Positions 2 to 12,907 of a stretch of 36,225 bases of DNA are shown piece by piece. Location: contig JAWCLG010000010.1 in NCBI GenBank assembly GCA_038851075.1, positions 1 through 36,225 of the forward strand, read 5' to 3'. Made by a program: the position numbers and the translations under genes. The stretch is from Candidatus Hadarchaeales archaeon (GTDB taxonomy: Archaea > Hadarchaeota > Hadarchaeia > Hadarchaeales > Hadarchaeaceae). Each line of letters starts with the position of its first letter. Positions within the stretch are counted from its first letter, which is position 1. The notes under the pieces were generated by a model. That model was given only the letters and a program-made list of their open reading frames with translations, did not search any database and had not been told where the DNA came from.

Positions 2-1621
2 GCCACCGGGAATGTAATATCATGGAAAGAAGAGGATTACGGACACGATTTCGGCGGGCTTGTGGGAGCAAACTACGGAGAAGACGCGATAATCAGATAC
101 TGTTATTCTGCGGGAAATGTGGTGCTGGGGGATGAGGGCGAGAAAACTGAGTATGTTGGGGGGCTGGTCGGGTATAATAGTGAGGGAACCATCCAGAACT
201 GCTATGCCACCGGGGATGTGGAGGGGTATGAGGATGTTGGGGGGCTGGTCGGGTTTAATGATGGGGGAACCATCCAGTACTGCTATGCCACCGGGTATGT
301 GGAGGGATATGAGTATGTTGGGGGGCTGGTCGGGAGGAATGATGAGGGAACCATCCAGAACTGCTATGCCACCGGGTATGTGGAGGGGCATGAGGATGTT
401 GGAGGGCTGGTCGGTTTTGACTATTCTGGATCTGTTTCGAACTGTTACTCAAATGGATACGTTGATGGAAGCACTTCGGTCGGAGGGTTGCTTGGATATA
501 ATAATAGTGCAATCTATTCAAACTCGTTCTGGGACACCGAGACCTCAGGGCAGCCGACCAGCGCAGCGGGCACGGGAAAGACCACAGCACAGATGAAACA
601 GCAATCCACTTACACAGGATGGGACTTTGTAGATATCTGGAGGATAGAAACGGGGAGAAACTATGGTTATCCGTTCCTCCTGGCACTCGGTGCTCCATTG
701 ACGAACAGCCCGCCAGTCGCAAGCAACCCCAAAGCCGAGGGACAGACCAATCCGACCAACCTGACGACGTACACGCCGACATTCACCTGGGACTTTTCAG
801 ATGCAGATGATAACAGTCAGACGCAGAGGCAGATACAGGTGGGCACAACTCTTAACGGAAACGACATGTGGGACAGCACACTCTCCACGTCTTCGCAGTC
901 AGCCGTCTACGCCGGATCGACCCTGAGCAGAGGGGTCACATACTACTGGAGGGTGAGGGTGTACGATGGACAGGATTGGTCGAGCTGGGCATCAGGCACG
1001 TTCAAGCTCATTCCAGAGCCATCCATCACCACCACGGAGACCGCGACGCACCTCGAAAACGTGATGGCCGGGGACAGCGTGCCCATCACCGTTGGGGACT
1101 TCCAGCTCACCATAGTGTTCGGACAGAGCGTGGGCTCCCTCGACATAACGCACGAGGTCACGGCGATAGACATGGACCTTGGCTCCGGGCTAGCCGCGTA
1201 CAGCGAGGGGATAACCATAGAGCTGTCGTCCTCGGTGAGCCTGACCGCCACCCTGACCATGACCATACCGAAGTCCTGGGCCACGGCTAACAACGTGGAC
1301 CCGACATCGATCAGGATAATGAGGTATAAGAACGGCACCTGGACTGAACTGTCCACGACTGTCCAGGAAACTGCAAACTCATACGTGCTCACGGCTCAGG
1401 TGACCGGGTTCTCCACATTCGTGGCTGTGGGATCGGTGCGGCAGGAGGCACCGTCCGCAGGGGAGGCTCCTCCGGAGGTCACCCTGCCGGGCCAGCAGCC
1501 CGCGCCTCCATCGGCTCCTGCAGAGGATGTCGGGTTCCTGGTATTCATCGCATGCGTTGGCATCCTGATCATAGCAATCATAGCGCTGATAAAGTTCGCC
1601 ATACTGCCGAAGAAAGAATAA
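2..1621 (+). CDS. Cell-surface protein, 5'-truncated: GLUG repeats, Ig/FN3-like domain, PGF-pre-PGF-like domain, Pro-rich linker, C-terminal TM anchor
   Basis: The frame is open from position 2 (ATGNVISWKEEDYGHDFGGLVG...), so it starts upstream of the window. It has repeated VGGLVG..N..GTIQNCYATG units, FWDTETSGQ..WDF..IW, YYWRVRV and GFSTFVAVG, then a hydrophobic tail ending in KKE. Confidence 0.85.
   Translation, partial: ATGNVISWKEEDYGHDFGGLVGANYGEDAIIRYCYSAGNVVLGDEGEKTEYVGGLVGYNSEGTIQNCYATGDVEGYEDVGGLVGFNDGGTIQYCYATGYVEGYEYVGGLVGRNDEGTIQNCYATGYVEGHEDVGGLVGFDYSGSVSNCYSNGYVDGSTSVGGLLGYNNSAIYSNSFWDTETSGQPTSAAGTGKTTAQMKQQSTYTGWDFVDIWRIETGRNYGYPFLLALGAPLTNSPPVASNPKAEGQTNPTNLTTYTPTFTWDFSDADDNSQTQRQIQVGTTLNGNDMWDSTLSTSSQSAVYAGSTLSRGVTYYWRVRVYDGQDWSSWASGTFKLIPEPSITTTETATHLENVMAGDSVPITVGDFQLTIVFGQSVGSLDITHEVTAIDMDLGSGLAAYSEGITIELSSSVSLTATLTMTIPKSWATANNVDPTSIRIMRYKNGTWTELSTTVQETANSYVLTAQVTGFSTFVAVGSVRQEAPSAGEAPPEVTLPGQQPAPPSAPAEDVGFLVFIACVGILIIAIIALIKFAILPKKE
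155..417 (+). repeat. 81-bp (27-codon) near-identical tandem repeats encoding GLUG units
   Basis: gttggggggctggtcggg-like starts occur at 155, 236, 317 and 398 (period 81), with the shared core ggaaccatccag(a/t)actgctatgccaccggg(g/t)atgtggaggg. Confidence 0.9.
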
Positions 1622-1643
1622 ATCTGTGAAACCTGCCCTAAAT

Positions 1644-2738
1644 CTAACCTCTGAGCGCTATCGCCAAGATGGCCGAACACACAATACCGATTATTGCACA
1701 CATCAAAAATGGAGCCACCGGTGAAAAAACATCGGCAAGAAAACCGCCGGCTCCCGGAAATATCGCCCATCCTAGACCGGATATCGCGTTGAACACCCCC
1801 ATCGCATATCCCGTGCTGGTTCCGCCCGCCTTGGACGCAAGCGACATGATTGACGGGTACATCATTCCTATTCCCAAAGCAACCCCAAACAGGAGCATCG
1901 CCAATAACACGAGATTGTAAGCCGCGAAAAACCAGATGTATACCACGGACACGGTGAGCATCGCCCACTTCGTTAAAGCCCTCTCCCCGACTCTGTCGGA
2001 AAGTTTACCAGAGGGTATGAAAAACAGTGCACGCGTCAGGGTGAAGATGGTTATCAGAATCCCCGCCTCAGCCTCAGACATTCCAAGAGCGGTCCTGACA
2101 TAGGGTGGGAACAGGATAAGGATCACTGAAATCATCCCGATGTACGGCAAACCGATCAATGCTGGGTAGAGTATTTTTCTGACGCTGATATGATGCCCGC
2201 TGGTTGCGGTTGGTCGCGGCAGCCGCGGTATCACCAACGTGGAAACCGCTGCCACCATTGCTCCAATCGCAAATATTGTTCTGGCTCCAAAAGACGCATA
2301 AAGCGAGCCAGCTATCAAGGGGCCAATGCCCAATCCAAGCGCCCAGGAACTTCCGTATTTTCCCATCGCAAGGCCGCGCTTCGATGAGCTTGAGGTGTCC
2401 GCCACGATTCCCTGAAGGCCGGTCCATATGAAAGCCTCCATCCCTCCCTGGAACAGCCTCACGATGAGCATGACAGGGAAGGAGAACGTGAGATGGTACG
2501 CGAGGAACACCGCCGCGGTTCCCGCGAACCCCATCATGACGAACCGCCTCTTTCCCATCCTGTCCCCCAACCTTCCAACTGGGACGCAGAGCAAAACGTA
2601 GAGGAGGATATAGGTCACTCCAAGCATCCCTATCTCGGTGTAGCTCGCCCCCAGCTCGCTTGCGTAAAGCGGGACCGCCAGGTTGACCATACCCATGGCG
2701 AGCGACAGCACGAACGTGCCGAGCATCAGCCTGCGCAT
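1644..2738 (-). CDS. MFS transporter
   Basis: About 12 hydrophobic segments, with motif A GRLGDRMGKR and a second copy GKLSDRVGER. Start trimmed to ATG 2738 to avoid overlap with the divergent tpiA upstream region. Confidence 0.9.
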   Translation of the reverse strand: MRRLMLGTFVLSLAMGMVNLAVPLYASELGASYTEIGMLGVTYILLYVLLCVPVGRLGDRMGKRRFVMMGFAGTAAVFLAYHLTFSFPVMLIVRLFQGGMEAFIWTGLQGIVADTSSSSKRGLAMGKYGSSWALGLGIGPLIAGSLYASFGARTIFAIGAMVAAVSTLVIPRLPRPTATSGHHISVRKILYPALIGLPYIGMISVILILFPPYVRTALGMSEAEAGILITIFTLTRALFFIPSGKLSDRVGERALTKWAMLTVSVVYIWFFAAYNLVLLAMLLFGVALGIGMMYPSIMSLASKAGGTSTGYAMGVFNAISGLGWAIFPGAGGFLADVFSPVAPFLMCAIIGIVCSAILAIALRG

Positions 2739-2848
2739 ATGTGAAAATGAAATCCGGTCGCATAAATCCTTTGACAATCTGAAGGTGCGGTGAAGCGCGT
2801 GTGGGATATATTTATTTGGGATGGAAACCATTTTCAGCGGTGGTAAAG

Positions 2849-3532
2849 GTGAGATTTCCGCTTGTCATCGTGAATTTCAAGACATATCCGGAGTCAACCG
2901 GGGAGAACGCGGTACGTCTTGCCGAGATTATCTCCGATATCTCACAAGAAAGTGGGGTCTCTTCGGCGGTCGCTCCGCAGGCTCCTGATATAAAGGATAT
3001 TGCGAAAAGGGTGAAGATACCTGTGCTCGCCCAGCACGTGGATCCGATAAAACCCGGAAGAAATACCGGATTCCTCTCACCAGAGTGCGTTAGGGCGGCG
3101 GGGGCTGTTGGAACGCTGGTCAACCACTCCGAGCACAAGCTCCAGCTGGATCAGGTCGACGCCATCATAAAGAGAGCTAAGGAGGCCGGACTCGTGACCG
3201 TGGCGTGCACCGCGGACACATCCGAGAGCAGGAGTGTGGCGAAGCTGACCCCGGACGTTATAGCGGTTGAGCCACCTGAGCTGATAGGCACAGGAATACC
3301 GGTCTCGAAGGCGAAGCCGGAGGTTGTGCTGGAGTCCGTCAAGGCCGTAAGGGACATCAACGGACAGATAAGGGTCCTGTGCGGGGCGGGGATAACCACA
3401 GGAGAGGATGTGACGAAGGCCATGGAGCTCGGGGCTGAGGGCGTGCTCATAGCATCTGGTGTTGTCTGTGCGAAGGATCAGGCCGCGGCATTCCAGGATA
3501 TAGTTAACGGGGTCCTGTCTTTTGGAACGTAG
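2849..3532 (+). CDS. tpiA: Triosephosphate isomerase (archaeal short type)
   Basis: Motifs VNFKTY, NHSE, AVEPPELIGTG, VLCGAGI and GVLIASGV. GTG start at 2849 follows GGTGG; the start is approximate. Confidence 0.95.
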   Translation: MRFPLVIVNFKTYPESTGENAVRLAEIISDISQESGVSSAVAPQAPDIKDIAKRVKIPVLAQHVDPIKPGRNTGFLSPECVRAAGAVGTLVNHSEHKLQLDQVDAIIKRAKEAGLVTVACTADTSESRSVAKLTPDVIAVEPPELIGTGIPVSKAKPEVVLESVKAVRDINGQIRVLCGAGITTGEDVTKAMELGAEGVLIASGVVCAKDQAAAFQDIVNGVLSFGT

Positions 3533-3608
3533 AGTGTAACGATTCATCGGGGGGCCTGGGCTACCGGATATTTTATATGGAAGATTATTGAATAAAACAA
3601 TTGATTAG

Positions 3609-4144
3609 ATGAAAACTAAAAATGGGATTATAGTCATCATCGTATATTTTATAGCTTACTTGCTATATTCGTTTGCTCCCATTGAGGGGAGGGCATCGTA
3701 TTTCTAATTTTGGCTATGTTTGGGACCCGATTAATGTATGATGGCAGAGATGAGTTGTCTAATGAACGGCATGAAAGGCTTGTGACTATCGGTTACTGGA
3801 TAGTCTTTATAACGGTAATCATAGTTTTTCTAACCATTGTTGCATCGGTTTTTGTTGTTCGATCCCCTCAATCCATATATGCATCCATTATAAACGTTTT
3901 AGTAGTTGGCATCGTATGTGAGATCATGATTACCGTGGGTCTCGGCATGGCTGTTTTTCACGTTGTAAACGATGCCGGCAAGTTGCTACTCTTGATAGGT
4001 ATTGCGTTAAAAATTGGTTTAATAGTCTCAATTTTACTACTGCCGGTTGGCGCCTCAGTGCTTTATATAATATCCACTATTTCGATGCTCGTTGCGTATA
4101 TAATCGCCCTAACCATGGTCGGAGAGAAGAAACCGGCAGTCTGA
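3609..4144 (+). pseudogene. Frameshifted multi-TM membrane protein (DUF973/DUF996-like, tentative)
   Basis: ATG 3609 gives the hydrophobic MKTKNGIIVIIVYFIAYLLYSFAPI, which stops near 3707. A second frame (GEGIVFLILAMFGTRLMYDGRDELSNERHERLV...) continues to 4144. The switch lies at the G-rich tract 3684-3693. Confidence 0.6.
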
Positions 4145-4186
4145 CTGTAACCCTCGTACACAGATGCCCGTTCAACGGCCAAGGAC

Positions 4187-4194
4187 TTTTAAAT
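4187..4194 (+). promoter_or_regulatory. TATA box of tRNA-Thr
   Basis: TTTTAAAT lies about 26-33 nt upstream of tRNA G1. Confidence 0.55.
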
Positions 4195-4219
4195 TCGACT
4201 ATGCAAAAATATCAAACGG

Positions 4220-4325
4220 GCCCCGGTAGCTCAGCCTGGCAGAGCGACTGAAGGAGACTGTCGAAACTTGTAGCCGGGTGCAGGAGATCAGTAGGTCGTG
4301 GGTTCAACTCCCACCCGGGGCTCCA
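4220..4325 (+). tRNA. tRNA-Thr(UGU) with two introns (4251-4265 at 30/31; 4273-4286 at 37/38), CCA encoded
   Basis: Acceptor GCCCCGG/CCGGGGC, U73 discriminator (typical of archaeal tRNA-Thr), D-arm GCTC/GAGC and T-arm GTGGG-TTCAACT-CCCAC. Removing both inserts gives ACTGA-CTTGTAA-TCAGT. Both inserts form BHB motifs. Confidence 0.92.
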
Positions 4326-4331
4326 CCTTAA

Positions 4332-6260
4332 TCATGCTATTCTGCAGTCGCCGGGCGGCATGGCGCGTTCCACCTCATCTATCGAAAAATTGAACCCCGC
4401 CTCGACCATCCTTCTTCTTATGGCCTCCGCCGCCTCACGCTTTCGGATTCCTCCAGGGGACACCTCAATGACTATTCTGGAGTGATTTCTGACAGCGCTG
4501 ACCGGTCCGCACATCACGATCTCCCTTCCATAGAACCCAACCACTCCCAGAGCGGCTCGCAAAGGCACGTCGATGTAGTTCCTTTCACCTCTTATCACGA
4601 AGCTTCCCTTAGGAAGGTAAGTGCCTGGTGGAGCGCGCGCCGAAACCTGATCGGGTCTAACCCAGAAAACCCTTGTCGAACCCATCCCCTCGATCCATGC
4701 CCTCGAGTGCATGGCTGCGAACTCAGCTGCCTCTCTGATATCATCCACCGGCACTTCCCTTCCCCCGGATCTTATTATCACGTGGGGTGCGCCTCTGATT
4801 TCAGCGTGTAGATAAATGTCCCGGTCTCCCATTCTCTTCCTGACGATTTCGGAGTTCGTCTTTTCATCCCTGCCGCCGAGAATCAGGAAGCCTCCTGACG
4901 ACAGGGCCCACCTGTACTTCTCGAACCAAATTTTTTCCTCTTTCCGGGGCGGCTGAAACGCGGAAAGTCCCATCCTCTGAAGGCGATCCAGCTCCACCGC
5001 CGTCCTCTCTGCCGCCTTCTTTGCCCCGGCCGCTTTCTCCGCAAACTTCTTGTAGCCCTCATAGTACCTGGAGGCATTCTGAAAAGCCGAAAACTTCAAG
5101 TCAAGCGTAACCTCTTCACCCATAAGGTCCACAACCACCTCTCCAGATCTGCGCAATGTCCTGACAGATGGTGCCCACCATGCGCCTGAAGCTGCGGCGG
5201 ACCTTATGAAATCCATCGCTCCTCCGGAACCAGCCTTTCTCAACGCTCCTCTAACCTGATCAAGCAGTCCGTCCACGAAATGGTGCTTCAGAGAGATAAC
5301 GTCCGCCCTTCTCTTCATCCAGACCGATTGTTCATAAAGCCTTGAAAAGCTGTCCTGCTCCTCAGACAGGATTTTCTTAAGCCTTTCGATTTCGGTCTCC
5401 AGCCTCCTTCTTGCGCGCTCCGAGGCCGAGATCACCGCCACCTCGGCGAAGTACTCATCAAGCGCCTCGTTGAAAGAGGGAAACTTCCTGCATTCCCTGC
5501 CCGTGTATATCTTGAACCAGAACGGCAAAACGTCAAGCGGTCTGCCCTCATCATAAACTATGACGGGATCGGGATCTGACGTGAATACCCGATGGATGGA
5601 TCCTGCCAGCGTTTTTAGGTCCTCATTTGAAATTGATGAAGGCGAAAGCGACTTTCCGAGACCGCTTCTGGAGCAGATCTCCTCGGCAAGAGCGCCTCCG
5701 AGGCCCAGGTTCACCGCAAGAGCTCTGACGAGGTCCGGAGCCCCTCTCATCTGCTCCCTGAGCTCCTCCGGGACAATCGAGTCTGGATTTATCCTCGGAC
5801 CAGGAGGGATCACGTATGCCTCTCCTGTCCTGACCGTCCTACCCATATGGCTCTCAGATCTGTACGGGTGCAGGATTTTCATCGAACCGTCACATAGGAT
5901 GATGTTGCCCCTGCCGAAAAGCTCCACGACAAGGTACCTCTTCTCGATGCCAGAAAACTCAAGCACGACCACCCTCTCGGTCCAGGGCTGCTCAATTCCC
6001 GAAAGCTCGGCTCCTCGAATGTGCTTCCGCAGCAGCATTGCGAACGAACCCGGCCTTTTGGGCAACTTTGGACGCCCGCTTGTCAGATTGATCCTGCGCC
6101 CCATCTCACATATCAGAATCATACGCTTTCCGTCCATCATTCTTAGAGACAGCAGGACAGAACCGTCTGCCTCATACGAATTTTCCACTCGAGCTCCGAT
6201 AGCGTTTTTAAGCTCGCGAACGCAGACCATAATGTCAAGACGGGACATTGCCAGCTTCAT
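4332..6260 (-). CDS. rqcH: Rqc2/NFACT family ribosome quality-control protein (archaeal RqcH-like, fibronectin-binding A domain)
   Basis: Motifs FAMLLRKHI, ELFGRGNIIL and NASRYY, plus the NFACT-R domain WFEKYRW..SSGGFLILGGRD..N..YLHAEIRGAPHV and PGTYLPKGSF. ATG 6260 has a GGTGA SD. Confidence 0.92.
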   Translation of the reverse strand: MKLAMSRLDIMVCVRELKNAIGARVENSYEADGSVLLSLRMMDGKRMILICEMGRRINLTSGRPKLPKRPGSFAMLLRKHIRGAELSGIEQPWTERVVVLEFSGIEKRYLVVELFGRGNIILCDGSMKILHPYRSESHMGRTVRTGEAYVIPPGPRINPDSIVPEELREQMRGAPDLVRALAVNLGLGGALAEEICSRSGLGKSLSPSSISNEDLKTLAGSIHRVFTSDPDPVIVYDEGRPLDVLPFWFKIYTGRECRKFPSFNEALDEYFAEVAVISASERARRRLETEIERLKKILSEEQDSFSRLYEQSVWMKRRADVISLKHHFVDGLLDQVRGALRKAGSGGAMDFIRSAAASGAWWAPSVRTLRRSGEVVVDLMGEEVTLDLKFSAFQNASRYYEGYKKFAEKAAGAKKAAERTAVELDRLQRMGLSAFQPPRKEEKIWFEKYRWALSSGGFLILGGRDEKTNSEIVRKRMGDRDIYLHAEIRGAPHVIIRSGGREVPVDDIREAAEFAAMHSRAWIEGMGSTRVFWVRPDQVSARAPPGTYLPKGSFVIRGERNYIDVPLRAALGVVGFYGREIVMCGPVSAVRNHSRIVIEVSPGGIRKREAAEAIRRRMVEAGFNFSIDEVERAMPPGDCRIA

Positions 6261-6281
6261 GCTCTCACCGGAGGAGTAAAC

Positions 6282-6635
6282 ATGCAAACCGTTGCGGCAG
6301 GAGCACCGGCCAGGGTGCAGGCGCTTTCGGAGGCCAGAGTCACCATATTCTTCGCTCTGACGGGGTCGCTGGCAGGATTGATCTCCGCCGTCATCAGCCT
6401 AACAATGGGAACCGGAACGGGCGCCCTCTGTCTCATCCTTGCTGTATTTCTGTTTTACATCTCATATAAGTTGGCCAGCCTTGAAAAATTCAGGTCCAGA
6501 TATCTAACGGCCTCACTTCCGGAATCCGAGGTGAAGAAAAATCTGAGGATAATAACAAGCGGAATATGGCCGTTCTTCATTCTGTGGCTCATCATATGGG
6601 TGCTCGCTTACACCGTGGCGATAAATTTCCTGTAA
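6282..6635 (+). CDS. Small 3-TM protein, archaeal EMC6-like (tentative)
   Basis: GGAGG SD. Two N-terminal TMs, a charged loop and a C-terminal GIWPFFILWLIIWVLAYT, which resembles the EMC6-like tail. Confidence 0.6.
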   Translation: MQTVAAGAPARVQALSEARVTIFFALTGSLAGLISAVISLTMGTGTGALCLILAVFLFYISYKLASLEKFRSRYLTASLPESEVKKNLRIITSGIWPFFILWLIIWVLAYTVAINFL

Positions 6636-6651
6636 GAATCACGGTGTAATC

Positions 6652-7305
6652 ATGGACGCAAACAGGATAAAGGTAATAGCTGACCGAAGGGAGAGCGGGT
6701 CCGGGGTCCTGCGGTGGCTCCGTGAAATCGCCGATGTGAGGCTGAGTACAATCGACGCAGGAGACTATGTGGTCAGCGATCGTATCTGCATAGAAAGAAA
6801 ATCCGCCGGAGATTTTCTGCAGTCCATCGTTGACCGAAGGCTCGCCAGACAGATGCGGGATATCGCCAAGCTTTACGAAAAACCAGTCCTGATACTGGAG
6901 GGAGGCGATCTGTTCTCCCGCAGGTCGATACATCCGAATGCCATAAGAGGGGCGCTGGCCTCGCTTGTCACGGACCTTGGAGTTTCAGTTATTCCATCCG
7001 AGGGGGAGGAGGACACGGCGAGAATAATAGCGGCCCTTGCCAGGAGAGAACAGACAAAGGACGGAAGAGAACCTGTCCTCAGGGCGAAACCAAAAGCGGA
7101 CGGAATCCAAAAAATGCAGAAGTTTGTTGTTGAGGGACTTCCGGGAATATCATGCGTTCTTGCAAAAAGGCTGCTCAAGCACTTCGGAACTGTTGAGAGG
7201 ATTATGCGGGCCTCACAGGAGGAGCTGATGAAGGTGCCTGGGATAGGCAAGAAAAAGGCGCACGGGATACGTGTCGTCCTGTCATCCGCCTACCGCGAGG
7301 ACTGA
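6652..7305 (+). CDS. xpf: XPF/ERCC4 structure-specific endonuclease (nuclease + HhH2, no helicase domain)
   Basis: Motifs ADRRE, GDYVVS and ERKSAGDF, with HhH motifs LPGIS and VPGIGKKKA. Confidence 0.9.
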   Translation: MDANRIKVIADRRESGSGVLRWLREIADVRLSTIDAGDYVVSDRICIERKSAGDFLQSIVDRRLARQMRDIAKLYEKPVLILEGGDLFSRRSIHPNAIRGALASLVTDLGVSVIPSEGEEDTARIIAALARREQTKDGREPVLRAKPKADGIQKMQKFVVEGLPGISCVLAKRLLKHFGTVERIMRASQEELMKVPGIGKKKAHGIRVVLSSAYRED

Positions 7306-7361: not shown

Positions 7362-8948
7362 ATGCACTGGATTGACAGAATCGCAAAGGCCATCATGAAA
7401 AATGGAAAAAAACACGTCATAGCCAGCGGAATATCCATATCCGGACATGTGCATATCGGTCACTGCAATGACGTGTTCATCGCGGATGGCGTTAGAAGGG
7501 CCGTGGAGGAGCTCGGGGGGGAGGCAGAGGCGATATGGTACGCAGATGACTATGACCCGATGCGCAGGGTTCCGTGGCCGCTCAATCAGGGGGAACTGGA
7601 AAACAGGTACAAGCATTACCTGGGATTCCCTTACGCCAACATTCCGTCCCCGGACCCATCTTACAGCAGCTTCGTTGACTACTTCTCGAGGGATTTCGTG
7701 AATGCCCTGAAAGAGTTTGGAATAAATGTGACCATTTACTCGGGCGCGGAGGTCTACAGAAGCGGGAGAATGGCGGAGCTGACAAGGACCGCGCTCGCAT
7801 CATCGGACAGGATAAGAAAGATACTGAACAGATACAGGAACAGACCTCTTCCGGACGACTGGCTTCCGTACGACCCAATATGCGCTAATTGCGGAAGGAT
7901 ATCGACCACACGGGCCTATTCGTGGAAGGGAGATCTGGTGAACTACAGATGCGAAGGATCAGAATACGTCGAAGGGTGTGGACATACCGGTGAGGCGGAC
8001 TTCACAAAGGGAGAGGGAAAGCTGACATGGAGGGTGGAATGGCCCGCCAGATGGAAGCTGCTGGGCGTCACGTGCGAGCCTTTCGGAAAGGACCACGCGG
8101 CCGCCGGGGGCAGCTACGAGACTGGGAAGCAGATAGCGCGGTTGGTATTCAAGTACAGGGCACCATACCCGGTTCCCTATGAGTGGGTGGGTCTCGGAGG
8201 AAAGCACATGTCCTCCTCGAGGGGGATTGTGTTCACTCTCTCACAGTGGCTGGAGGTGGCTGAGCCAGAGCTGCTGAGATACTTCATATTCAGGAGCAAA
8301 TCCATGAAGGCAAAGGAATTCGATCCATCGATGGGTATTGTAGAGCTCTACGAGGAGTTCGATGAGGTGGAGAAGGTGTACTTCGGGCTGGGGAGGCTCG
8401 GTGGAAGAAAGCTGGATCAGCTGAAGAGGATCTACGAACTATCTCAGGTTGAAAAACCCCCACACGGCCCGCTGCAGCGCCTGCCATTCAGGCTGGCTGC
8501 AACCCTGGCGCAGGTGGTTAAGGACGAAAGCCAGGCCGTGGAGATCATGAAACGCCGAAAAATCTTGATCAATCCAACCGAGCTCGACATCTCGCTGGCG
8601 GTGAAACGTCTGAGGTGCGCCGGGGGCTGGGTAACAAAATACGCGCCTGAGTTCATGCGATTCCGGATATCCGAGGAAGTTCCCCCTGCAGCACGCGAGC
8701 TAAGTGAAAAGCAGAAGACGGGACTTCGCATCATCGCCGAAGAGCTGTCCAAGGGAGATCACGCGCCGCTGGAGCTGCACAATTTGATATACGCAATCGC
8801 CAAGAAAATTGGAGCCGAGCCGGCAGATCTTTTCAGGGCAATATACATGACGCTGCTCGGCAGAAGCTCTGGCCCGAAAGCCGGGACCCTGCTGTCCGTG
8901 CTTGACCGCGAGCTGGTAATATCAAGGTTCAACGAGGTCTCTTCCTGA
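7362..8948 (+). CDS. lysS: Lysine--tRNA ligase, class I
   Basis: Motifs MHWID, SGISISGHVHIGH, KLTWRVEWPARW, EPFGKDH, HMSSSRG and GPKAG. Confidence 0.97.
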   Translation: MHWIDRIAKAIMKNGKKHVIASGISISGHVHIGHCNDVFIADGVRRAVEELGGEAEAIWYADDYDPMRRVPWPLNQGELENRYKHYLGFPYANIPSPDPSYSSFVDYFSRDFVNALKEFGINVTIYSGAEVYRSGRMAELTRTALASSDRIRKILNRYRNRPLPDDWLPYDPICANCGRISTTRAYSWKGDLVNYRCEGSEYVEGCGHTGEADFTKGEGKLTWRVEWPARWKLLGVTCEPFGKDHAAAGGSYETGKQIARLVFKYRAPYPVPYEWVGLGGKHMSSSRGIVFTLSQWLEVAEPELLRYFIFRSKSMKAKEFDPSMGIVELYEEFDEVEKVYFGLGRLGGRKLDQLKRIYELSQVEKPPHGPLQRLPFRLAATLAQVVKDESQAVEIMKRRKILINPTELDISLAVKRLRCAGGWVTKYAPEFMRFRISEEVPPAARELSEKQKTGLRIIAEELSKGDHAPLELHNLIYAIAKKIGAEPADLFRAIYMTLLGRSSGPKAGTLLSVLDRELVISRFNEVSS

Positions 8949-12370: not shown

Positions 12371-12705
12371 CGGCGACGAGCTAGGCGGGCCGCTACCCCT
12401 GGCCTGTAACCACAAATGGGGTTCACGGTGGGCCGAAGCTTGAGGAAGGCGCTGGAACTGCACGCTAGGCCCGGTTTCCGGCGTGGATGCCACGTCCTGC
12501 CGGGCCGGCGGAGGCGGGGCCCTGTCCGCAGGGTCAGGGAGAACCGCCCTCACCTGGCGAATCCCCCAGGGGCGGAAGATCGGAAAAACCGATCCGAATC
12601 AGCAAGGGTAGTCAGGACGTTTGGCGCTGGCAGCCAACGGGGCGGAGCTTGGAGCCGGTAACCGGCGTGCGGAGAAGGCGTCGACCCCGGGCGCGCTCGT
12701 CGCCG
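12371..12705 (+). ncRNA. ffs: Archaeal SRP (7S) RNA containing a 20-nt insertion/intron in helix 8
   Basis: Helix 1 CGGCGACGAGC/GCTCGTCGCCG (11 bp). Alu domain GGGCC..GGCCT-GTAA-CCAC..GTGG with loop-loop complementarity ACCCC/GGGGT. Helix 6 CCCTGTCC-GCAG-GGTCAGGG (GNAR loop). S-domain ACCTGGCGAA...CAGG...AGCA...TAGTCAGGACG. Length is 335 nt, or 315 nt without the insert. Confidence 0.93.
12579..12598 (+). other. Putative BHB intron within SRP RNA helix 8
   Basis: ATCGGAAAAACCGATCCGAA. Central helix CGGA/TCCG, bulges AG^A and AA^T, inner helix TCGG/CCGA. Excision yields CAGG-GGC-GGAA-GTC-AGCA. Confidence 0.8.
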
Positions 12706-12804: not shown

Positions 12805-12907
12805 GCCGGGGTGGCCCAGCCAGGTAAGGCGCAGGGTTGCTATGGAAGCCGCAAATACCCTGTTGCGCTCTCGCGCATCGTGGGTTCAAATCCCACCCCC
12901 GGCGCCA
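12805..12907 (+). tRNA. tRNA-Ser(GCU) with canonical 37/38 intron (12843-12856), CCA encoded
   Basis: Acceptor GCCGGGG/CCCCGGC, G73, long variable arm, anticodon arm CAGGG-TTGCTA^A-CCCTG. The BHB central helix is TTGC/GCAA. Confidence 0.93.

Follow-up and report, generated by a model that had tools for sequence, protein, structure and literature searches.

A two-intron tRNA-Thr(UGU) gene of a Hadarchaeote with mutually exclusive splicing motifs and a possible scaffolding role for its canonical intron

How can two introns be removed from one tRNA precursor when the folds that display their splice sites cannot exist at the same time? This question is raised by positions 4220 to 4325 of a 36,225-nucleotide contig (JAWCLG010000010.1) of Candidatus Hadarchaeales archaeon (assembly GCA_038851075.1). 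The whole stretch, referred to here as the window, is contig C10 of a Hadarchaeote genome of 1.009 Mb (29 contigs, 52% G+C, 88% complete), which we call the source genome (G000). The original prediction, made from the sequence alone, described a tRNA-Thr(UGU) gene with two introns and competing bulge-helix-bulge (BHB) folds at this locus. The present analysis led us to propose that the gene is functional, that its introns are removed in a fixed order, and that the second intron serves as a scaffold for the removal of the first, a proposal to which we assign, as a whole, a probability of roughly 0.68.

Two introns with overlapping splicing motifs

The Rfam tRNA model (RF00005) matches positions 4220-4322 of the plus strand with 51.7 bits and every arm intact, and in its alignment 36 nt lie between the anticodon-stem strands ACTGA (4247-4251) and TCAGT (4288-4292), where a 7-nt loop belongs. 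For the intron boundaries, a purpose-written BHB scanner and solver was combined with ARAGORN as a check on the cloverleaf. This gave 15 acceptable splicings, two of which had both U33 and R37, and a single one was complete, namely the excision of 4251-4265 together with 4273-4286; none of the eight possible single 29-nt excisions restored U33. The gene is thereby divided as follows, where h, H, and h' denote the outer, central, and inner helices of the full hBHBh' motif.

4220-4325, plus strand: whole tRNA-Thr(UGU) gene (Rfam, BHB solver), with a 103-nt precursor body (4220-4322) and an encoded CCA (4323-4325)
4220-4250, plus strand: exon 1, tRNA positions 1-30; acceptor 5' strand, D-arm, and first four nucleotides of the anticodon stem
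4251-4265, plus strand: intron 1, 15 nt, at site 30/31 inside the anticodon stem; strict hBHBh' with H 4/4, h 3 bp, h' 2 bp
4242-4269, plus strand: BHB core of intron 1; h GAG (4242-4244)/CTT (4267-4269), H CGAC (4245-4248)/GTCG (4260-4263), bulges TGA (4249-4251) and AAA (4264-4266), h' AG (4252-4253)/CT (4258-4259) closed by a GAGA loop
4266-4272, plus strand: middle exon, positions 31-37; A31 followed by C32 U33 U34 G35 U36 A37, carrying the anticodon UGU
4273-4286, plus strand: intron 2, 14 nt, at the canonical site 37/38; H 4/4, h' 1 bp
4267-4287, plus strand: BHB core of intron 2; H CTTG (4267-4270)/CAGG (4281-4284), bulges TAG (4271-4273) and AGA (4285-4287)
4287-4322, plus strand: exon 3, positions 38-73; from the 3' strand of the anticodon stem through the variable loop and T-arm to the acceptor 3' strand and discriminator U

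All helices, bulges, and coordinates that the original prediction had listed for the two introns are present in the sequence, and its two-intron gene with competing folds is the only complete solution of the solver. Positions 4267-4269 (C32-U34) are common to the outer helix of intron 1 and the central helix of intron 2, and the two BHB folds are mutually exclusive. The outer helix of intron 2 measures 1 bp before the removal of intron 1 and 5 bp after it, in agreement with the earlier claim that this helix needs an intact anticodon stem. Intron 2 resembles a canonical archaeal hBHBh' intron at 37/38 in having positions 32-35 on the 5' side of its central helix, in its two 3-nt bulges, and in the predicted cut after the second nucleotide of each bulge. 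It differs in its weak inner helix, which is just 1 bp long because the 5' part of intron 2 is complementary to the D-loop instead.

A permissive scan returned 35 BHB-like candidates within the 106-nt gene, so common is the bare motif. When the 37-nt variable stretch was shuffled 3000 times, 14 shuffles were solvable under relaxed BHB criteria and none under strict criteria, by which we mean that, when the cut is made, the central helix has 4/4 pairs, the outer helix 2 bp or more, and the inner helix 1 bp or more. The rarity lies in the combination of motifs and not in the bare BHB-like motif. One 29-nt candidate, at 4245-4273 (H 4/4, h 5), was rejected, as its excision destroys the D-arm and leaves no tRNA; its apparent outer helix is the P1 helix described below.

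Spliced in silico, the gene was read by ARAGORN as Thr(tgt), 77 nt long including CCA, with U33 and A37, and the minimum free energy (MFE) structure of the spliced tRNA is close to a cloverleaf. Its body can be aligned with the Thr(GGU) and Thr(CGU) tRNAs of the source genome, with which it has G1-C72, C2-G71, and the discriminator U73 in common, which we take to be archaeal Thr identity elements. ARAGORN missed the unspliced gene in default mode and, once it was permitted to place introns, reported Ser(gga) i(33,29) with one intron of 29 nt, which bears out the earlier warning that automated tools may miscall the anticodon.

The other Thr tRNAs of the source genome are GGU and CGU. A second Thr(UGU) was found neither among the 36 Rfam matches nor among the 40 ARAGORN calls of this 88% complete genome, the CGU gene was the sole match when the intronless Thr(UGU) genes of relatives were used as BLAST queries against it, and a pattern search for an intronless Thr(UGU) gave no matches. 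Ten YTTGTRN stem-loops elsewhere in the source genome were dismissed, given a rough chance estimate of about 15; none overlaps a tRNA match, and the best of them (C12:14383) has no T-arm. Altogether, we have little doubt that positions 4220-4325 are a real two-intron tRNA-Thr(UGU) gene.

Conservation and a predicted helix between the D-loop and intron 2

With a covariance model built from orthologues, the two-intron gene was detected in 10/65 genomes of the order with 111-128 bits, and these 10 genomes represent six genera, all in one family; the matches ranking next did not exceed 75 bits. Nine GTDB species records matched the two-intron pattern, all of them Hadarchaeota, Hadesarchaea, Hadarchaeales, or 'Hodarchaeaceae'. 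Together, the covariance model and the pattern scans of GTDB and metagenomes gave 33 loci, which reduce to 23 distinct sequences. Both introns are kept in all 23, with a conserved position of intron 1, and variable columns make up 8/74 of the exons, 5/16 of intron 1, and 10/15 of intron 2. Nearly invariant exons with variable introns are what one would expect of a functional gene with inserts that are spliced out. The central helix of intron 2 stays paired through one-sided changes (pair 50:66, UA 12, UG 10, other 1; pair 51:65, UA 22, UG 1).

Other forms of Thr(UGU) occur in the family. Genus g11 has a single-intron Thr(UGU), and an intronless one is present in 6/46 family genomes. In a relative of the same genus (G001, 86% complete), the two-intron gene was not found, and its Thr(UGU) (L136) is 96% identical to the Thr(CGU) gene of the source genome (C15:20815-20887), an apparent C34/U34 anticodon switch between close relatives, judging from the sequences.

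The complementarity between intron 2 and the D-loop, which the original prediction had missed, forms a helix that we call P1 and that helps to build the predicted fold of intron 1.

4234-4240, plus strand: 5' strand of P1, D-loop GCCTGGC, pairing with 4273-4279; found in the MFE fold, in the RNAalifold consensus, and by covariation
4273-4279, plus strand: 3' strand of P1, GCCGGGT, the opening 7 nt of intron 2, which match the D-loop by complementarity

The unconstrained MFE fold of the precursor is not a cloverleaf and has the outer and central helices of intron 1 stacked above the 7-bp P1, which prolongs the outer helix across a 1x3 internal loop. Over the 23 orthologues, P1 is paired in 98.8% of 161 cells, compared to 3.7-49.3% in slid registers, and two of its pairs show compensatory double changes (21:55, UA 10, CG 6, UG 5, other 2; 17:59, CG 22, UA 1). 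None of 500 shuffles reached its covariation score. Without any input structure, RNAalifold returned the alternative hairpin (P1 with h and H) as the consensus, with no D-stem and no anticodon stem. That P1 is a selected helix is highly likely in our view; that it acts as a scaffold for intron-1 cleavage is a further step, which we consider probable, with appreciably less assurance.

The second-tier matches of the covariance model turned out to be other tRNAs of the order, with an intron at 30/31 (or 29/30) and one at 37/38. This layout was found in Met(CAU), Phe(GAA), Lys(CUU), Arg(UCG), and the Arg(UCU) of the source genome. For these genes and for genes with a single canonical intron, we determined the length of the longest helix that the D-region can form with the canonical intron. 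The count leaves out genes whose canonical intron exceeded 25 nt or whose two introns were arranged differently, as well as one 'Stop' call, two loci for which there was no solution, and one gene that was solved wrongly. The orthologues are not independent of each other, and the comparison is descriptive.

Two-intron genes (n=26): median longest helix 6.5 bp; 6 bp or more in 19/26; median duplex energy -10.75 kcal/mol
Single-canonical-intron controls (n=26): median longest helix 4 bp; 6 bp or more in 2/26; median duplex energy -5.8 kcal/mol
Helix between D-region and canonical intron, by family: Thr 7 bp; Met mostly 6-10 bp; Phe 7-8 bp; Lys 6 bp; Arg(UCU) 5 bp; Arg(UCG) 4 bp

The Met, Phe, and Lys examples showed the full hairpin in their MFE folds, with a P1 of up to 12 bp. 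In the Phe genes, the helix occurs in two different registers in different clades, and the g11 Met genes attain it with their register shifted. In the Met gene L082, a compensatory change is seen in the central helix of intron 1. A column-based test of P1 covariation in the Met family was dropped, given that the genera use different pairing registers. Two genes of the source genome with a 30/31 intron only, Leu(CAA) and Met(CAU), have MFE folds in which, beneath the BHB, the partner of the D-loop is the anticodon-stem 3' strand; what the predicted folds have in common is a long platform under the 30/31 BHB.

The source genome contains at least four other two-intron tRNAs, the boundaries of which are as predicted by the BHB solver, and several single introns near position 30. 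The four are Arg(UCU) (C5:25976-26081, minus strand; introns 29/30 and 37/38), Gly(GCC) (C6:19964-20077, plus) and Glu(CUC) (C23:2817-2933, plus), each with a D-arm intron and a second intron, and Tyr(GUA) (C3:50561-50678, minus), whose two introns both lie close to the anticodon loop. Leu(CAA) (C3:75921-76019, plus), Met(CAU) (C4:26569-26656, minus), Gln(CUG) (C4:22658-22754, plus), and Gly(GCC) (C7:17395-17488, minus) carry one non-canonical intron each, in the D-arm or close to position 30. Another layout is seen in two Phe(GAA) genes (L092 and L093, of genomes G014 and G005), which combine a 30/31 intron with a T-arm intron after position 52 and not with one at 37/38.

Splicing order and competing explanations

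In the mechanism that we propose, the primary transcript would fold as one long hairpin and not as a cloverleaf. The D-loop (4234-4240) would pair with the first 7 nt of intron 2 to form P1, the D-stem 3' strand GAG with C32-U34, and positions 25-28 with the 3' end of intron 1, and P1 and these pairings would together display a strict hBHBh' for intron 1. The splicing endonuclease EndA, which is homotetramer-sized in relatives, would cut both intron-1 bulges, and RtcB would ligate the ends. Only after the removal of intron 1 could the complete 5-bp anticodon stem form, allowing the RNA to refold towards the cloverleaf. C32-G35 would then pair with the 3' part of intron 2, and this canonical BHB would be cut and ligated in turn. 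Intron 2 would be both the last intron to be removed and a cis-acting scaffold for the removal of intron 1.

The original prediction had already suggested that intron 1 is removed first. Under strict criteria, the native gene is indeed solved in the order intron 1, then intron 2 only, and in the precursors of the 23 sequences, the intron-1 fold is more stable than the cloverleaf with the intron-2 BHB by a median of 16.3 kcal/mol at 37°C (13.4 at 75°C). The exclusiveness of this order does not extend to relaxed criteria, which allow both. The intron-1 BHB is part of the MFE fold in 10/23 sequences with intron 2 present versus 0/23 when intron 2 is deleted first, in which case it lies a median of 10.9 kcal/mol above the MFE. 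From this modeling we infer the order of removal, the actual cleavage, and the refolding, and we regard intron 1 before intron 2 as the likely main pathway. No RNA dataset was found to cover 3000-7000 of the window, and the one metatranscriptome considered shared next to no sequence words with it, a result that has no bearing on whether the gene is expressed.

RtcB is present in the source genome (601.9 bits). Two short RtcB-like matches were also seen at a contig end (C3:103233-103445 and 104796-104972), in a frame with stops (one TAG, one TAA), which could represent a fragment or else a copy that is broken or contains an intein; the intact RtcB is on C8. EndA (PF01974) is found in 33/36 family relatives, among them the one of the same genus, with frames that measure about 175-239 aa apart from one of 125 aa, and 32/33 relatives with a match have one match per genome; G001 has two. 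Residues 15-179 of the 179-aa EndA of G001 align with residues 9-171 of the homotetrameric EndA of M. jannaschii (1a79; E 1.1e-40) with no large insert, and a short insert was neither confirmed nor excluded in this comparison. From their size, the EndA proteins of the relatives would be homotetrameric (alpha4). The intron-1 motif is strict, and a permissive enzyme is therefore not required. In the same-genus relative (locus L062), the EndA gene (1246-1785, plus strand) lies tail to tail with a 371-aa gene (1782-2897, minus strand) that by eye is class I aminoacyl-tRNA synthetase-like.

A different account of the same locus would be that both introns are real and that a permissive Hadesarchaeal EndA removes each of them independently and in either order, with P1 incidental to the order. 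It is in line with the two orders found under relaxed criteria, with the broad specificity that Kaneta et al. 2018 (PMC5829648), in the sections considered here, ascribe to alpha4 EndAs with an 'L3' insert in Hadesarchaea, and with the energy model after intron-1 removal, which is not clearly in favor of the intron-2 fold, so that there is no clean two-state switch. However, the intron-2 fold is the less stable one in the precursor by the same median of 16.3 kcal/mol, and before intron-1 removal it would have to be cut with an outer helix of 1 bp and an inner helix of 1 bp. Removing intron 2 first also takes P1 away and leaves the intron-1 BHB out of the MFE in 23/23 sequences. The covariation of P1 and its recurrence in other two-intron tRNAs are left unexplained by this account, and the same-genus EndA is without a large insert relative to the strict M. 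jannaschii enzyme. We therefore consider splicing in either order unlikely, though it is the strongest of the competing explanations.

Somewhat less probable still is that P1 was selected for another purpose than presenting intron 1, such as postponing the cloverleaf, modification, or aminoacylation to the end of splicing, shielding the precursor, or keeping the exon halves together for ligation, purposes that we rate jointly. P1, whose function is putative, is clearly under selection; moreover, P1 is still part of the MFE fold after intron-1 removal in 13/23 sequences at 37°C and would therefore also keep the 5' and 3' parts joined while ligation proceeds. Against these purposes stands the company that P1 keeps: a helix of this kind accompanies upstream 30/31 introns and not single canonical introns (19/26 versus 2/26), in all of the examples folded, it stacks right under the outer helix (3 bp) of the intron-1 BHB, and in the 30/31-only genes, the D-loop pairs with the anticodon-stem 3' strand at the equivalent place, which points to the intron-1 platform as the common factor. 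Finally, it is most improbable that the locus is the tRNA-Ser(GGA) with a single 29-nt intron that ARAGORN calls when introns are allowed, or a decaying pseudogene, since the former would have a loop without U33, lacks the long variable arm of Ser tRNAs, and has a body that aligns with Thr(GGU) and Thr(CGU), the latter is at odds with nearly invariant exons and varying intron loops across the 23 orthologues, which indicate purifying selection, and for both no other Thr(UGU) was found in the source genome.

Several observations weigh against the ordered, scaffolded splicing that we propose. Relaxed criteria solve the native gene in both orders, including intron 2 first, and the intron-1 BHB is in the precursor MFE of only 10/23 sequences at 37°C. 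After in-silico removal of intron 1, the energy model still favors P1-containing folds, and the cloverleaf with the intron-2 BHB is part of the MFE fold in only 9/23 sequences and lies a median of 8.1 kcal/mol above the MFE. According to this model, the refolding step is not predicted by thermodynamics alone, and with P1-containing folds still preferred, refolding would have to rely on tertiary contacts, modification, or proteins. The depth of the P1 covariation is modest, with two double-change pairs in sequences that are closely related and not independent. Variation in intron 1 is confined to its hairpin loop, but the search patterns fixed the sequences of the intron-1 helices, and the lack of helix variation in the Thr set is uninformative. 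Arg(UCG) genes, which combine introns at 29/30 and 37/38, have no D-loop:intron helix (4 bp in 3/3), and the D-loop:intron rule covers the 30/31 families and not the 29/30 Arg genes. One relative, G062 (66% complete), has both a two-intron (C26:16274-16376) and an intronless (C16:2584-2606) Thr(UGU), because of which the two-intron gene is not indispensable everywhere; this combination was not found in the other 45 family genomes searched. Lastly, no EndA was found in the source genome (88% complete), either with PF01974 or with a same-genus protein, which we treat as assembly incompleteness and not as true absence.

Known systems, surroundings of the gene, and implications

The multiple-intron ('nested') pre-tRNAs of Thermoproteales are reportedly the subject of Sugahara et al. 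2007 and Tocchini-Valentini et al. 2009. As far as citing passages allow a comparison, they resemble the Hadarchaeote gene in having two BHB introns in one tRNA, one of them non-canonical, in a last BHB that awaits removal of the other intron, and in repeated rounds of cleavage, ligation, and refolding, which are predicted here. They would differ in the enzyme, which is (alpha-beta)2 in Crenarchaeota whereas EndA is homotetramer-sized in the Hadarchaeota relatives, in the arrangement of the introns, which in the Hadarchaeote are adjacent with overlapping BHBs and not one inside the other, and in the covarying D-loop helix that the later intron adds here. Ordered archaeal splicing, in which the last BHB does not form until removal of the other introns, is described in passages of PMC3728597 and PMC3978253 that cite these two papers.

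Closer to the present organism, Kaneta et al. 2018 (PMC5829648) link the alpha4 EndA with 'L3' insert in Hadesarchaea to more tRNA gene disruption. In the parts of that paper that we draw on, Hadesarchaea archaeon YNP_N21, of the same lineage, has an alpha4-type EndA and a marked rise in disrupted tRNA genes, with multiple introns plotted as a category. These parts give genome-level tallies and no single gene, intron position, precursor fold, or order, and they ascribe processing to the EndA loop insert, whereas the gene described here would present a strict hBHBh' through alternative folds. The same parts cover the pre-tRNA-Glu(UUC) of Methanopyrus kandleri, a euryarchaeal-type organism, which likewise has two introns (D-loop and canonical) and for which an in vitro time course reveals that one intron is preferentially removed before the other. 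In that pre-tRNA, removal starts with the canonical intron, and the motif of the non-canonical one is a relaxed HBh', while in the Hadarchaeote the non-canonical motif is strict and is predicted to go first. Multi-intron tRNAs, ordered splicing, and Hadesarchaeal tRNA disruption are thus already in print. The earlier view that such introns are unexpected outside Thermoproteales-type archaea is not supported as it stands, given the Hadarchaeote host, the at least four other two-intron tRNAs of its genome, and the published disruption. A canonical intron that covaries with the D-loop and scaffolds an upstream BHB was not found in the literature searched; earlier papers on nested introns beyond that literature may describe something similar, and a limited search for D-loop:intron scaffolds, splicing order, and Hadarchaeota tRNA introns gave nothing specific beyond Kaneta et al. 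2018. The intron-2 scaffold is possibly a new variant.

Upstream of the gene lies a probable promoter, and its neighbors and two further RNA genes of the window are listed with it.

4187-4195, plus strand: A/T-rich TATA-like box TTTTAAATT, probable archaeal promoter, about 29 nt upstream of the tRNA 5' end
4332-6287, minus strand: NFACT-family protein, on the opposite strand immediately downstream of the tRNA-Thr gene
6652-7305, plus strand: ERCC4/HhH nuclease, Hef/XPF-like
7362-8948, plus strand: class I lysyl-tRNA synthetase
12374-12702: archaeal signal recognition particle (SRP) RNA (Rfam, 127.6 bits)
12805-12904: tRNA-Ser(GCU), about 100 nt downstream of the SRP RNA

We presume that the TTTTAAATT box is a promoter from the archaeal TATA consensus and its spacing; of the 31 orthologue loci inspected, most have a TTTTAAA-type box some 25-35 nt upstream. 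In the tRNA-Ser(GCU) gene, a single canonical intron occupies gene positions 39-52 and the variable arm is of class II; this gene, too, is missed by ARAGORN in default mode. The Rfam alignment had suggested a multi-intron gene here as well, which was rejected when the solver showed Ser(GCU) with one canonical intron.

As to what the finding means, the only ACA-decoding tRNA found in the source genome is mislabeled or overlooked by automated annotation, and metagenome-assembled genomes of Hadarchaea may therefore appear to be without essential tRNAs. The data further suggest a way in which many non-canonical tRNA introns could be carried by an organism whose endonuclease is homotetramer-sized, in that the precursor is shaped and the specificity of the enzyme need not relax. 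Extending this to a folding program common to the Hadarchaeales, in which the 37/38 intron has been recruited as antisense to its own D-loop and a long hairpin displays a strict 30/31 BHB, is a tentative step, to which we give slightly less than even odds. If such a program exists, a strict endonuclease of the homotetramer type could process non-canonical introns, and splicing would be obligatorily ordered and mutually dependent, with intron 1 needing intron 2 to be present and intron 2 needing intron 1 to be gone. If confirmed, the scaffold would be an example of a tRNA intron with a defined structural function, exerted in cis, when another intron is removed, and the complementarity of the canonical intron to the D-loop would provide a simple rule for finding such genes and splicing them correctly in silico.

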